Source: Candidatus Omnitrophota bacterium
Lineage (GTDB): Bacteria; Omnitrophota; Gorgyraeia; Gygaellales; Profunditerraquicolaceae
NCBI GenBank assembly: GCA_028716245.1
Contig: JAQUQW010000002.1
Location: forward strand, 72,947 to 136,946
DNA: 64,000 nt
Direction of reading: 5' to 3'
The number at the start of each line of letters is the position of its first letter. The stretch's first letter is position 1. Position numbers and translations under genes: made by a program. Below, piece after piece: positions 46,009 to 51,021 of this stretch. The notes below the pieces were generated by a model that was not told where the DNA came from, did not search any database, and saw only the letters and a list, made by a program, of their open reading frames with translations.

Positions 46009-46233
46009 ATGCGTTTTGCGATTTTAGAGCCTAAAGGGGCAATCTGGCGGGGAATGGCTAAAAAAGTAAATCTGCCGGCGGCGGAGGGAGAAATGTGCGT
46101 GCTGGATTTTCACCAGCCTTTTGTAGCCCGGCTTAAAAAAGGCAATATTGTTTTTTCCAATACGCGTATCGCGATAAAAGACGGAATCGCCTTTATGCGT
46201 TCGAATAACCTGACGGTTTTTGCGAATAAATAG
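46009..46233 (+). CDS. atpC: F-type ATPase epsilon subunit, N-terminal beta-sandwich domain only
   Basis: 74 aa. AEGEMCVLDFHQPFVARLKKGNIVF matches the epsilon GE.GILPGHAPL...L.PG core. The C-terminal helical hairpin is absent. Confidence 0.6.
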   Translation: MRFAILEPKGAIWRGMAKKVNLPAAEGEMCVLDFHQPFVARLKKGNIVFSNTRIAIKDGIAFMRSNNLTVFANK

Positions 46234-46235
46234 AT

Positions 46236-46299
46236 AAATAGGGACAGCGACCATTTTTTCTTGGTCGTTTAGATAAAAAATGGTCGCTGTCCCTATTTA
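46236..46299. repeat. REPIN-like element H (family 1) between epsilon and c subunit genes
   Basis: Arms are at 46236-46260 and 46275-46299. The spacer contains the inner mini-hairpin CGACCA...TGGTCG. Confidence 0.85.
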
Positions 46300-46307
46300 A
46301 TTAACCT

Positions 46308-46520
46308 ATGTCCACACTGGCATTAACAATCCTGATGTTTTTAAGCACTGCCGGCCCTTCCGCGGTGATTGCCTTTGTGGGATATTCCGCTGTTAAATCT
46401 ATTGCCCGTAATCCTTCCGCAAGCCCAAAAATATTTATTGTCATGATTTTATCTTTTATTTTTGCCGAAGCAATCGCGATTTTAGCGCTTTTGATTTTAT
46501 ATAACCTGTTCTCTAAATAG
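46308..46520 (+). CDS. atpE: F-type ATPase c subunit (proteolipid)
   Basis: 70 aa with two TM helices, an ARNP loop and a conserved carboxylate in FAEAIAILALL. Confidence 0.8.
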   Translation: MSTLALTILMFLSTAGPSAVIAFVGYSAVKSIARNPSASPKIFIVMILSFIFAEAIAILALLILYNLFSK

Positions 46521-46532
46521 GGCCAATATATA

Positions 46533-47250: not shown

Positions 47251-48708
47251 ATGAAGATTGAAGCCTTAGACATAAAAGAAATCGGAAGGATCGAAGAGCT
47301 TAAGCAGGGGATTGTGAAAATCAGCGGTTTGCCTAATTGCGCCTATGGGGCTGTAATCGAATTCGATAATGGATTAAAAGGAATGATCGTTGAATTTGAC
47401 GCGCAATTTGCCTTTGGGATTGTTTTTGGGGATGAACGCAGGATTAAGGTCGGCGATACGGTTTCCACCCGCGGCCAGCTGCTTAATGTTCCGGTAGGGG
47501 ATAATTTTATCGGCAGAGTGGTTGATCCTTTGGGTAACCCGATAGACGCAAAAGGTAAAATTGAGCCGGCAGCGGTAAATCCGGTCTTCCATCAGGCATC
47601 CGGGGTTATGGAGCGCGAGCCAATAAGCCATCCTTTGCATACTGGGATAAAAATTATCGATATGCTTATCCCGCTGGGCAAAGGCCAGCGGGAATTGATC
47701 GTCGGAGACCGGCAGATCGGCAAAACCAGCATCAGTTTGGATATGATCATCAATCAAAAAGGCAAAAATGTTATCTGCATTTACTGTTGGATCGGAGGAA
47801 GCAGCGCGGCTTTTAATAAGATTATCCAGGTGCTTAACCAACAGGGTTGTATGGACTTTTGCCTTGCTGTCTGCGCCTCGGCAAGCGCCTCGGCAAGCGA
47901 ACAATATATTTGTCCTTATACCGCCGCGGCATTAGGTGAATATTTTATGTATAATGGTAAGGATGTCCTGGTAATTTTTGACGATTTGACTAAGCACAGC
48001 TGGGTTTACCGGCAGATGTCTTTGCTGCTTGAGCGGGCCCCGGGAAGGGAAGCGTATCCGGGAGATATCTTTTTCTTACATTCACAGCTTATGGAGCGCG
48101 CCGGCCGCCTGAAGAAAGAATTCGGAGGCGGGACAATGACATTCTTGCCGTTAGCCGAAACACTGCAAGGTGATATTACCGGTTATATCTGCTCGAATAT
48201 CGTTTCGATGACCGACGGGCAGATTTATTTAAACTCCGGGCTTTTTCAGGAAGGTTTCAAACCGGCGATCGATTTGGAACTTTCAGTTTCGCGTATCGGA
48301 AGCAAGGTGCAATGCCCGGCCATCCGTAAATTAAGTGAAGGCCTGCGTTATGAATACGTGCAATACCGTTCTTTACTGCGTTTGACCCGCCTGCGCACCA
48401 AACTTAGCCCGGAGAGCGCCCAGCAACTGCAGCGGGGCCGGGCCCTTTATGAGCTTTTGATTCAGGAAAACGGTTCTCCTTTATCTCAGGCAGAGGAGAT
48501 CGCTGTTTTTTTTGCCTTTCGCCAGAAGATACTTGAGTCAATCAGTATCGAGCAGGTAAAATTGTTTAAAAATAATTTCTTTGCCTATTTAGGCAAGCAT
48601 CAGCAGAATTTAGTGGGGCAACTGGATAGCAAAGGTGAGCTTACGGAAGAAATTAAACTGCTTTTGGATAAAACGATAAAAGATTTTTTCCGCAGCCAGG
48701 ATAAATAG
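47251..48708 (+). CDS. atpA: F-type ATPase alpha subunit (divergent)
   Basis: Walker A GDRQIGKTS and alpha-like N-terminal beta-barrel and C-terminal helical domains. It contains a 12-nt exact tandem duplication (47875-47898) encoding ASASASAS. The stop TAG overlaps the REPIN I arm. Confidence 0.8.
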   Translation: MKIEALDIKEIGRIEELKQGIVKISGLPNCAYGAVIEFDNGLKGMIVEFDAQFAFGIVFGDERRIKVGDTVSTRGQLLNVPVGDNFIGRVVDPLGNPIDAKGKIEPAAVNPVFHQASGVMEREPISHPLHTGIKIIDMLIPLGKGQRELIVGDRQIGKTSISLDMIINQKGKNVICIYCWIGGSSAAFNKIIQVLNQQGCMDFCLAVCASASASASEQYICPYTAAALGEYFMYNGKDVLVIFDDLTKHSWVYRQMSLLLERAPGREAYPGDIFFLHSQLMERAGRLKKEFGGGTMTFLPLAETLQGDITGYICSNIVSMTDGQIYLNSGLFQEGFKPAIDLELSVSRIGSKVQCPAIRKLSEGLRYEYVQYRSLLRLTRLRTKLSPESAQQLQRGRALYELLIQENGSPLSQAEEIAVFFAFRQKILESISIEQVKLFKNNFFAYLGKHQQNLVGQLDSKGELTEEIKLLLDKTIKDFFRSQDK

Positions 48709-48768
48709 GGACAGCGACCATTTTTTTGGCCGCTACACTTAGAGAAAAATGGTCGCTGTCCCTATTTT
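48703..48768. repeat. REPIN-like element I (family 1) between alpha and gamma subunit genes
   Basis: Arms are at 48703-48727 and 48745-48768. The first arm contains the atpA stop codon. Confidence 0.85.
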
Positions 48769-48780
48769 ATTTATTATTAA

Positions 48781-49623
48781 ATGATACCCGTAGGAAAGTT
48801 AAAATCAAACCTGCAATTTAATAAAAACCTCGGGGATTTAATTGAGGTAATGAAGTTGGCGGCAACCCTGCAGTTTAACCAGTTCCGCCTGAAACAGGAG
48901 CCTTCCGAAGATTCTGTCCGGTTTTTGGAAGAGATCCTTGGCATATTGTTTTCTTCGGGGGTAAAAGATGGCTTGCTGCAGCCGAAGGAGAACCTGCCTT
49001 CGCTTTTGCTTTTGATAAGTTCCGACGAAGGATTTTTAGGCGAACTAAACTTTCTTCTGGTAAATAAGCTGCTTTCTGGCCGAAGGCAGCAGGATAGAAT
49101 CGTCTGCTCAGGCCAGCAGGGGGCCAATTATCTAAGAGAGATCCAGATAGATTTTTCTTTTTTTGATTCACCGGGCGAAAAAATAGAAACTCAGCCATTG
49201 GCCAAGATAAGGGATTATCTCTTACGCCAGTATTTTGACCGTAAGGTCGGCAGGATTTATGTCGTTTATTCGCGTTTCACCAACATTACCCAGCAGCAGG
49301 CAGAGTTTGAAATCCTGCTGCCTTTGCCCCTAACTCCCGGTGCTTCCGGAAAGGGGCTGGCGCATCTTTTGATTGAGCCTGATTCTCGAGAGGTAATCAA
49401 AGGATGGATTAAATGCTGGTTGGATTTTCGCCTTTATCAAATATTCTGGTCAAGCAAGCTGGCGGAGTTTGCCGCCCGGGTTATGCATTTAGAAGGCAGC
49501 GTGCAGGAATTAGGCAAGATCAACAGCCATTTGCGCATGGAGTATTTTAAATACCTGCACGGTTTATCTGATAAATCAGTGCGTGAATTGACTGCGGCCC
49601 GGCTAATCGGGAAAGAAAGATAA
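48781..49623 (+). CDS. atpG: F-type ATPase gamma subunit (divergent)
   Basis: 280 aa. The N-terminal helix GKLKSNLQFNKNLGDLIEVMKLAATLQF and the C-terminal helix are gamma-like. Confidence 0.65.
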   Translation: MIPVGKLKSNLQFNKNLGDLIEVMKLAATLQFNQFRLKQEPSEDSVRFLEEILGILFSSGVKDGLLQPKENLPSLLLLISSDEGFLGELNFLLVNKLLSGRRQQDRIVCSGQQGANYLREIQIDFSFFDSPGEKIETQPLAKIRDYLLRQYFDRKVGRIYVVYSRFTNITQQQAEFEILLPLPLTPGASGKGLAHLLIEPDSREVIKGWIKCWLDFRLYQIFWSSKLAEFAARVMHLEGSVQELGKINSHLRMEYFKYLHGLSDKSVRELTAARLIGKER

Positions 49624-49626
49624 AAT

Positions 49627-51021
49627 ATGGATTCCTCTGGTTCTTTAGCGAAAGTAGTTGCGGTTTATGGCTCAGTGGTGGACGCGCAGTTTGCCTCCGC
49701 AGGAGGTATGCCGCCAGTGGGCACGATGCTTAATGTTTGCACGAGCCTGGGTGAGAATATTGGTTTACAGATAGTTGAGCACCGGGGGGATAATATCTGC
49801 CGTTGCGTGGCATTAGGATTTACTTACGGGGTAGGCAGGAATATGCCCATCCGCCTGCGGGAAAACGGGATAATTGTTCCGCGGGATTTAAATCAACTTT
49901 ACGGCCGGGTGCTGAATGCTTTGGCCAGCCCCATTGACCACAAAAAAGAACTTGACACCAGCGATGCCCTGTCTTTAAAAAATATATCCGTAAATTCTAA
50001 ATTAGAGGTTGATCCGGATGGCGGAGGAAAGCCCCAGGTAATTTCTACCGGGATAAAAATGATCGACCTTCTTTTCCCTCTGGTCAAGGGGTCTAAAAGC
50101 GGCTTGCTCGGAGGCGCTGCCTGCGGGAAAACCATCCTCATTTTGGAGATTATCCATAATATTATCAGTTATCAGAGCGGTACCTGCATTTTTGCCGGAG
50201 TCGGAGAGCGTATCCGCGAGGGCAATGAACTTTACCACGAATTCTTGCGCGCTGACCTGCTGAAGCGTTCCATCTTAGTTTTTGGCCAGATGAATGAATC
50301 TCCGGGTATGCGTTTTGAAGCAGCGCATACCGCCGTTGCCTTGGCGGAACTGGTATTAGCCCAGAGAAAAGACGTGCTTTTCTTTATGGATAATGTTTTT
50401 CGTTTTGTGCAGGCAGGCAGCGAATTGGCTACTCTTTTAGGAAGAATTCCGTCTGAGGGCGGATACCAGTCAACCTTGACCAGTGAAATAAGCCAATTAC
50501 ATGAAAAAATACGCTCGGAGAAAAGCGCCAGTATCACCGCTATTGAGGCGGTTTATGTGCCCGCCGATGACATGACGGATCCGGCGGTTGTGGCGATATT
50601 CGCGCATATGGATAGTTTGATTGTTCTTTCCCGCTCATTAGTACAGCGCGGGCTTTATCCGGCAATCGACCCTTTGCAATCGTCGGCAAATTCTTTAACT
50701 CCGGCAATCGTCGGCAGGAGGCATTTTGATGTTGCCCAGGATGTCCTGCGGCATTTCCGGCGCTACGATGAATTGGAGCGCATTGTTTCAATCATCGGTA
50801 AAGAGGAGCTTGCCCCCGAAGAGAAAATCATTTTTGACCGGGCAAAGAAAATGCAGAATTTTCTTTCCCAGCCGTTTTTTACCGCCGAAGATTATACCGG
50901 CAGGCCCGGCGCGTTTGTTTCATTAGAAGATACGATTTCCGGATGCGAACGCATAATCAGCGGGGAACTGGATAAGGTTGATGAGAGCCGCCTTTATTGC
51001 ATAGGAAAACTGGAGAGCTAA
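49627..51021 (+). CDS. atpD: F-type ATPase beta subunit (divergent)
   Basis: Walker A GGAACGKT, a GERIREGNE motif, and beta-like domain order over 464 aa. Confidence 0.8.

Follow-up and report, generated by a model that had tools for sequence, protein, structure and literature searches.

An F-type ATPase gene cluster without an a-subunit gene, embedded in a type II secretion-like operon of Omnitrophota

Introduction

Genes for 'non-respiratory' or 'symbiotic' F-type ATPases have been described beside type-4a pilus clusters in the bacterial phylum Omnitrophota (Seymour et al. 2023, Nat Microbiol; PMC10066038). According to that paper, the cluster occurs in 56 of 111 Velamenicoccia species, the ATPase and pilus clusters lie no more than 10 kb apart on 57 of 66 contigs, and the alpha subunits form a monophyletic Omnitrophota clade placed with type 2/type 3 sequences, the ATPases being likened to those of Mycoplasma types 2 and 3. 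A 2026 preprint on 176 complete genomes (10.64898/2026.06.07.730766) reports alpha and beta in 125 genomes and gamma at strict thresholds in only 30, reads this as an incomplete F1Fo, and records a V/A-type ATPase in 70-99% of most Gorgyraeia and in most genomes overall. These two sources report the cluster from some members of the phylum only, in the company of V/A-type or respiratory F-type enzymes (PMC10066038; 10.64898/2026.06.07.730766). Here, a cluster of this kind was analyzed in a stretch of 64,000 nucleotides from a Candidatus Omnitrophota bacterium (assembly GCA_028716245.1, contig JAQUQW010000002.1, positions 72,947 to 136,946), which is called the window below and whose first letter is position 1.

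Subunit make-up, the absent a subunit, the changes in the stalk and the promoter treated below are not described in the accessible parts of Seymour et al. (2023) or of the 2026 preprint. Literature searches found no report on F-type ATPases lacking an a subunit or on F1-like ATPases associated with a type II secretion system (T2SS), and nothing on this ATPase in a V. archaeovorus paper or in the ProAD database paper. The system was already known in outline; its anatomy is added here, and the Mycoplasma analogy is corrected at the level of family membership.

Subunit composition and gene order

The cluster occupies positions 46009-51021 and consists of six open reading frames (ORFs) on the + strand in the order epsilon, c, b/delta, alpha, gamma, beta, all of which pass Pfam gathering scores (Table 1). 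Apart from the 2-nt one between beta and GspE, the junctions in the operon measure 3-12 nt, except where REPINs (hairpin-forming doublets of repetitive extragenic palindromic, REP, sequences) are inserted. A preliminary description of the window, prepared from the sequence alone, had given this order with epsilon first and b and delta in one polypeptide, and had quoted the motifs GDRQIGKTS and GGAACGKT; ORFs and motifs are all present as it described them, and its assignment of epsilon was upheld by profile search.

Epsilon aligned with TIGR01216 only over profile positions 3-79 of 130, that is, as an N-terminal beta-sandwich without the C-terminal helical domain. The preliminary description had called it C-terminally truncated; the helices are indeed absent, but the length is 74-84 amino acids (aa) in all of about 30 orthologues, start-codon extensions being set aside, and the truncation is not specific to this genome. 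In the c subunit, Glu54, the R34-N35-P36 (RNP) loop and Pro17 are invariant across 33 orthologues, the canonical 20-residue Arg-to-Glu spacing is retained in 33/33, and helix 1 carries STAGPxAVIA in place of GxGxGxG. The positions equivalent to Na+ ligands, which were placed with the established Na+-binding motif, are the hydrophobic residues I21, A55, I56 and L59, Glu54 being the only ligand present; as between Na+ and H+, which the preliminary description had left to be distinguished, the site reads as H+-type by established criteria.

The b/delta protein is composed of a transmembrane helix, which is invariant or nearly so across the family, a long b-type helix and a delta (OSCP) C-terminal domain, and lacks the N-terminal bundle of delta. 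An AlphaFold2 model built with 42 homologues (predicted local distance difference test score, 91.6) predicts helices at residues 2-134 and 137-157 and an alpha/beta domain at 169-235, and its C-terminal ~70 residues superpose on the delta C-terminal domains of E. coli and P. aeruginosa at 1.6 Å. In NCBIfam, the protein scored 61 bits as B/delta and 51 bits as N-ATPase b.

The catalytic head is intact in sequence, the catalytic Glu, Walker A and B motifs and Arg finger being conserved across the family. Alpha carries the P-loop GDRQIGKT and the Arg finger LSVSRIG, both conserved family-wide, and lacks about 17-20 canonical N-terminal residues, alignments with Protein Data Bank chains beginning at chain residue 22-33. 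In known enzymes, the N-terminal helix of alpha binds delta. Beta was aligned residue by residue to F1 beta: the catalytic GER, Walker B and YVPADD are conserved, EELAPEE replaces DELSEED, and Walker A is valid, with GGAACGKT in the window and GGAA[C/L]GK[T/S] across the family, as compared with GGAGVGKT. All six proteins are under strong purifying selection.

Search for an a subunit

Throughout the family, neither the operon nor the sequence around it contains an a-subunit gene. In the six frames of the 64-kb window, no ORF of at least 100 aa with at least four hydrophobic segments was found, the most polytopic ORF being GspF with three segments, and no a gene was detected in the 46 kb upstream or the 13 kb downstream of the cluster. 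The preliminary description had reported that no a subunit is present and had allowed for an atpB in the expected position beside the cluster; the absence holds, and no atpB adjoins c.

For related loci, an a-subunit profile was made from the E. coli a sequence and seven N-ATPase a proteins and was run on 178 loci. As a positive control, a was recovered in every N-ATPase locus brought in by the alpha scan described below, and no a gene was found by the profile or by a hydrophobicity scan within 10 kb in any of about 38 orthologous Omnitrophota loci. Two weak profile matches, a TonB protein and an EamA transporter, were dismissed. The hydrophobicity scan of the Omnitrophota loci (617 kb), which flagged the control a proteins, returned only GspF and a few unrelated transporters. 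In metagenome stretches probed with REP (120 loci, 765 kb; a small, mixed sample), neither a nor any further alpha or beta was found. A search of GspF, GspL/M, p228 and b/delta for a membrane-embedded conserved Arg that might stand in for the a-subunit Arg yielded only membrane-edge basic residues. The published KEGG Orthology (KO) table of one 95%-complete metagenome-assembled genome (MAG) lists K02111/K02112 and not K02108, which counts for little because the divergent c, b and gamma of the cluster were also missed there. V/A-type I and K appear in that table as well, and A and B do not.

As a separate observation, in the source data of Seymour et al. 2023 (genomes 221 + 58), V/A-type I and K (K02123, K02124) are listed without catalytic A and B, alongside F-type alpha and beta; K02124 in those KO lists may be the c subunit of this cluster, mis-assigned.

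Conservation of the locus in Omnitrophota

Related loci were gathered by exact-protein look-up and by an alpha scan of GTDB species genomes, and the window proteins were mapped onto them by phmmer. About 38 distinct Omnitrophota loci share the layout, at alpha identities from 94% down to 47%. Upstream, the shared order is a giant protein, p228, a Peptidase_MA_2 protein, sometimes a RAYT (REP-associated tyrosine transposase), and a response-regulator diguanylate cyclase; downstream, it is GspE, GspF, a PilM/N-type protein, a GspM-like protein and pseudopilins. GspE comes next after beta in 26/26 loci that extend past beta, a response-regulator gene intervening in one, and the platform and pseudopilin genes are likewise conserved downstream of beta in all 26. 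In the most distant members (L038, L040 and L042), a short epsilon also precedes c, and the sole exception seen is the short contig L041, on which alpha is followed by epsilon.

Homologues of beta and b/delta come almost entirely from Candidatus Omnitrophota MAGs, and a 100%-identical b/delta is present on an NCBI contig of 487,646 bp. In neighbour-joining trees with limited outgroups, which bear on the placement against F-type and N-type enzymes that the preliminary description had left to be made, the Omnitrophota alpha and beta sequences are each monophyletic and stand apart from canonical, N-type and candidate phyla radiation sequences, with alpha/beta identities of at least 45-47% inside the clade as against at best 45-52% to outside sequences.

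Two further observations were made in this set. In L005 (CP070797.1, labelled complete), a run of N lies in alpha (locus 8216-8330), and the upstream epsilon, c and b/delta of that copy are unreadable. Loci L049, L050 and L051, from Saccharibacteria and other Patescibacteria, carry alpha-gamma-beta(-epsilon) with 33-36% identity to the window alpha, and no c, b or nearby T2SS genes were found in them with the window proteins as probes.

Partner secretion genes, neighbouring genes and putative regulation

The beta stop codon (51019-51021) is separated by 2 nt from the ATG of GspE at 51024, and GGAGAG lies inside the end of beta, an arrangement by which GspE is probably translationally coupled to beta. 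The genes that follow (Table 1) encode the predicted platform (inner membrane) and pseudopilus proteins of a T2SS-like machine; upstream lie genes for an ExeA-like AAA ATPase and for two secretins that have a GspD N0 domain. The major pseudopilin scored 129.9 bits against the GspG equivalog (cut-off 88.85), and for GspE and GspF neither the GspE/F nor the PilB/C equivalog cut-off was reached; the cautious name is therefore 'T2SS-like type IV filament machine'.

The diguanylate cyclase is the first gene of the tight operon, ends 6 nt before epsilon and is syntenic in nearly all orthologous loci. Inside its coding sequence, an exact sigma-70 consensus (TTGACA-17-TATAAT) is found in a segment encoding LDIDNFKNYND. 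The exact 12/12 match is kept in 26/28 distinct orthologous loci; the third-codon (synonymous) positions are invariant at 4/4 within the hexamers versus 3/26 outside, and the codon preceding Asp is always xTT, whether Leu, Ile or Val is encoded. This element is likely a conserved internal promoter for the ATPase and T2SS genes. Since the c-di-GMP (cyclic diguanylate) motif of GspE, of MshE type, is above its cut-off (52.9 bits vs 38) and a PleD-like cyclase gene lies just upstream of epsilon, control by c-di-GMP may reasonably be supposed.

In related loci, the place of the giant protein of the window is taken by giant proteins of DUF2341 or Kelch type, 2,000-6,000 aa or more in length, which is consistent with published links between giant-protein and T2SS genes. 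The p228 gene always precedes the cluster and is duplicated to ~435 aa in L038 and L041. A 468-aa DUF2341 protein is also encoded within the upstream supercluster.

Table 1. Positions of the ATPase genes and associated features in the window
Feature	Positions	Strand	Description and scores
epsilon	46009-46233	+	74 aa; ATP-synt_DE_N PF02823 53.3 bits, profile positions 1-78/80
c	46308-46520	+	70 aa, two-helix hairpin; ATP-synt_C PF00137 37.8 bits
b/delta fusion	46533-47246	+	237 aa; Pfam ATP-synt_B 49.9, OSCP 60.6 bits
alpha	47251-48708	+	485 aa; NCBIfam F0F1 alpha 561.9 bits (cut-off 554), atpA 545.3 (cut-off 484.45)
gamma	48781-49623	+	280 aa, divergent, full length; PF00231 91.2 bits, profile positions 6-263/285
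beta	49627-51021	+	464 aa; atpD 493.7 bits (cut-off 462.85)
GspE/PilB-type secretion ATPase	51024-52643	+	T2SSE 431 bits; MshEN c-di-GMP-binding N-domain 51.6 bits
GspF, PilM/N (GspL-like), GspM-like, GspG, minor pseudopilins H/J/K	52645-58241	+	Pfam T2SSF, PilN, T2SSM_b, T2SSG, N_methyl, T2SSJ, T2SSK
Response-regulator diguanylate cyclase (REC + GGDEF, PleD-like)	45124-46002	+	Pfam GGDEF 158, Response_reg 70 bits; NCBIfam GGDEF 176 bits
Sigma-70 consensus TTGACA-17-TATAAT (candidate promoter)	45650-45678	+	12/12 match inside GGDEF coding sequence, ~330 nt upstream of epsilon
REPIN hairpin, epsilon/c	46235-46299	.	REP arms 46241-46258 (+), 46276-46293 (-); -40.5 kcal/mol, z = -10.5
REPIN hairpin, alpha/gamma	48700-48771	.	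REP arms 48708-48725 (+), 48745-48762 (-); -38.9 kcal/mol, z = -9.3
RAYT (IS200-like Y1 transposase)	44413-45084 (with REPs 44297-45102)	+	PF01797 53 bits; inverted REPs 44297-44314, 45085-45102
Peptidase_MA_2 protein	ends 44297	+	conserved upstream partner
p228	42736-43422	+	~230 aa, signal peptide + C-terminal transmembrane anchor, no Pfam family
Giant DUF2341-type surface protein	26980-42603	+	5207 aa, N-terminal signal anchor, repeated '...WYGKGWGTNTANNNIQYRK...' units
Part of upstream supercluster	17342-26927		ExeA/PEP-CTERM-type AAA ATPase, two tandem secretins (second with C-terminal TPR repeats), histidine kinase, LuxR-type response regulator
MNT/HepT toxin-antitoxin pair	24555-25359		same upstream supercluster

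REPINs and RAYT

The REPINs that the preliminary description had placed at the epsilon/c and alpha/gamma junctions are borne out: both are near-perfect, strongly folding hairpins of ~65-72 nt, the 18-nt REP arm occurs in 21 copies in the window versus 0 expected, and a REP-flanked RAYT, which is the source of the REPINs and lies outside the ATPase system, is encoded nearby. The left arm of the alpha/gamma REPIN contains the last codons and the stop codon of alpha. RAYT occupies the same slot, between the peptidase and GGDEF genes, in L012, L013, L015, L027 and L033. The REPIN load tracks the presence of RAYT, since L008, whose alpha is 94% identical, has neither RAYT nor REP in 21 kb.

Both junctions are free of REPINs in L001 and L008, where epsilon-c spacing is 3 nt and alpha is again 485 aa. 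RAYT and the same REP are found in L012 with the REPINs placed at different junctions, most of the ~38 loci are without REPINs, and protein lengths are equal with and without them. Since REP-free relatives have the same gene order, an equally short epsilon and no a either, these are old traits of the family and not products of REPIN rearrangement.

REP pairs were also observed inside or at the start of long ORFs, at 26218-26271 and 26866-26883 (DUF2341 ORF, 25521-26927), at 20339-20395 (second secretin) and at 43441-43545 (Peptidase_MA_2 protein); either the annotated starts are wrong or in-frame REPINs are tolerated in coding sequence. No Rfam match was found in 42000-54000.

Interpretation of the locus

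The cluster is probably an accessory, ATP-hydrolysing F-type motor of Omnitrophota that serves a T2SS-like machine; this reading is preferred because of the phylum-wide operon fusion, the intact catalysis, the lack of an epsilon brake and of an ion channel, the remodelled stator and the patchy distribution. A second, accessory ATPase had been one of the explanations offered in the preliminary description, and it gains from the discrete Omnitrophota clade, always fused to the T2SS-like operon, and from the other rotary ATPases that published surveys find alongside. The complex would consist of an alpha3beta3 head, a gamma/epsilon(N-domain) shaft, a c-ring and one membrane-anchored b + delta-C stalk protein, with no a of its own. 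Its genes would be co-transcribed, and partly translationally coupled, with those of the GspE/F/L/M/G-K machine, which presumably handles the giant surface protein encoded upstream. The complex would hydrolyse rather than make ATP, because the epsilon C-terminal brake, the ion channel and the delta-N/alpha-N clamp are all absent, and it would work within, or in service of, the secretion/pilus apparatus. In such a scheme, c-di-GMP from the upstream response-regulator cyclase, sensed by the MshEN domain of GspE, would switch the system.

Several points weigh against this reading. The c subunit keeps its membrane-embedded Glu54, RNP loop and Arg-Glu spacing in all orthologues compared, and b keeps its transmembrane helix, features that in known enzymes have a role only in combination with an a subunit. 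An orphan or very divergent a may possibly be encoded elsewhere in the genome, as one of the explanations in the preliminary description had it; atp genes that are scattered, and a subunits that have diverged beyond recognition, have precedents. Moreover, gene adjacency alone is no proof of physical coupling to the T2SS.

The main rival, on account of the invariant c-ring carboxylate and the b transmembrane helix, is a complete H+-translocating F1Fo with a encoded elsewhere. The hosts being fermenters, such an enzyme would most likely pump protons at the expense of ATP, and it would stand in the T2SS operon through co-regulation, for example to supply membrane potential for secretion, and not as a physical partner. 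We judge it rather unlikely. The conserved c and b features speak for it, as do alpha and beta scores above the canonical atpA and atpD equivalog cut-offs and a c site that reads as H+-type; other bacteria are known in which the atp operon is split and atpB stands alone, and secretion by the T2SS needs proton-motive force. On the other side, seven subunit functions are kept in one tight operon phylum-wide with a never among them (~38 loci) and no polytopic ORF nearby, and that delta has lost its N-domain, alpha its N-terminus and epsilon its C-domain is, taken together, a sign that both stator and regulation have changed. The K02108 gap in the 95%-complete MAG tends the same way, weakly, with the reservation already made for the missed c, b and gamma.

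Membership in the type 2/type 3 F1-like ATPases of Mycoplasma (gliding-motor or MIB-MIP-associated), with a role in powering surface motility as there, is improbable. The published alpha phylogeny groups the Omnitrophota clade there (PMC10066038), and both are non-respiratory and lie beside cell-surface machinery. However, alpha and beta fall below the family cut-offs (in bits, alpha: MMOB1660, 418 vs 600; MSC_0619, 334 vs 520; beta: MMOB1670, 395 vs 850; MSC_0618, 361 vs 570) and above the canonical atpA and atpD ones, on which grounds membership was rejected. Beta is also closer to canonical F1 beta chains (370-410 bits) than to the M. mobile G1-ATPase beta (9io5_A; 329 bits), and the window cluster includes c and b/delta, neither of which is known from the Mycoplasma clusters.

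A strain-specific REPIN/RAYT rearrangement of a canonical atp operon (the preliminary description had envisaged one mediated by REPINs), its decay, or an assembly artefact has a negligible probability and is refuted by the comparative data; decay into pseudogenes was likewise rejected. REPINs do lie at two junctions and a RAYT 1 kb upstream, but the same order and protein lengths recur in relatives that are free of REP and were sampled in independent studies (L001, L008 and many more), the order recurs across the ~38 loci down to 47% alpha identity, all six proteins are under purifying selection, and an identical b/delta is present on the 487,646-bp contig.

The accessory-motor reading may tentatively be carried further, in that an F1Fo-derived rotary motor could, by recruitment, have become an integral component of a type II secretion/type IV filament machine: its gamma-epsilon-c-ring rotor on a b/delta-C stalk, having given up the canonical alpha clamp and the partnership with a, would act mechanically or energetically on the GspF/L/M platform and help to extrude or present giant surface proteins. 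If true, this would be a type II counterpart to the recruitment of FliI-FliJ-FliH by type III systems, and no other c-ring is known that functions in the absence of an a subunit. If the complex is really a-less, a conserved, carboxylate-bearing c-ring without a known ion path would challenge the textbook role of the c-ring, and the strict joining of its genes, in one operon, to those of a T2SS-like machine and of a giant surface protein would point to a new way of powering or gating secretion in ultra-small, probably predatory or episymbiotic bacteria. If a is encoded elsewhere, the locus would specify nothing more unusual than an accessory proton pump that is regulated together with secretion. 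In both cases, genome surveys in which these alpha and beta genes count as 'ATP synthase present' or 'F1Fo incomplete' misread a separate system.

Comparison with known systems

Classification was made by NCBIfam curated equivalog cut-offs, beta being also compared with solved structures. Canonical F1Fo (atpIBEFHAGDC) is resembled in that alpha and beta pass the atpA and atpD cut-offs with all catalytic residues, and in that there are recognizable counterparts of gamma, the N-domain of epsilon, the carboxylate-bearing c hairpin and the transmembrane helix of b. The window cluster differs from it in having no a; delta is without its N-domain, alpha without its N-terminal helix, and epsilon, which comes first, without its C-domain; and the remaining subunits fall below their equivalog cut-offs (in bits, gamma, TIGR01146, 65.6 vs 194; epsilon, 49.3 vs 67; c, 25.2 vs 44; b, 48.4 vs 65.5; delta, 56.6 vs 57.5).

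In FliI-FliJ-FliH (SctN-SctO-SctL), a head and shaft that derive from an F/V-ATPase, together with a stalk protein resembling b+delta, dock to a protein-export machine; the complex is a conceptual parallel for a secretion-associated rotary ATPase. Against FliI/SctN models, alpha and beta reached at best 188-196 bits, below the cut-offs of 380-715; moreover, the head in the window is a heteromeric alpha/beta one with a c-ring, and its partner is a type II, not a type III, machine. The Mycoplasma type 2/3 ATPases (M. mobile G1-ATPase; MSC_0618/0619) are alike as non-respiratory, F1-derived ATPases genetically tied to a cell-surface machine, by analogy only.

The locus type of Seymour et al. (2023) agrees in phylum, alpha/beta clade, GspE/F-type genes and giant ORFs, and the window is one instance of it, with Omnitrophota homologues, GspE directly past beta, and alpha in the Omnitrophota clade. 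It differs in that the neighbour is called a type-4a pilus there, whereas the major pseudopilin of the window passes as GspG, which makes the machine T2SS-like.

The N-ATPase (atpDCQRBEFAG; Dibrova et al. 2010, PMC2881411) is likewise an accessory second rotary ATPase and has been argued not to synthesise ATP. Its AtpF resembles the window b/delta, there being no separate delta and a long b with a delta C-terminal region (TIGR03321 aligns with residues 6-231; PMC2881411). In contrast to it, the window cluster is without a, AtpQ and AtpR, its epsilon-c interval holding a REPIN and no ORF, while a, c and b were detected by the same probes in the N-type loci L045-L058; its c lacks the full Na+ ligand set, epsilon is short and comes first, and the cluster is fused to a T2SS operon. 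The N-type cut-offs are far from reached (alpha vs TIGR03324, 502.5 bits, cut-off 750.5; beta vs TIGR03305, 450.5 bits, cut-off 752). The window order could be derived from the N-type order by moving beta last and removing atpQ-atpR-atpB, but N-type ancestry is not favoured over canonical because of sequence distance, alpha/beta identity being 39-43% to N-type and 41-48% to canonical sequences. The family is a distinct branch of F-type ATPases that shares its stalk architecture and accessory status with the N-ATPases.

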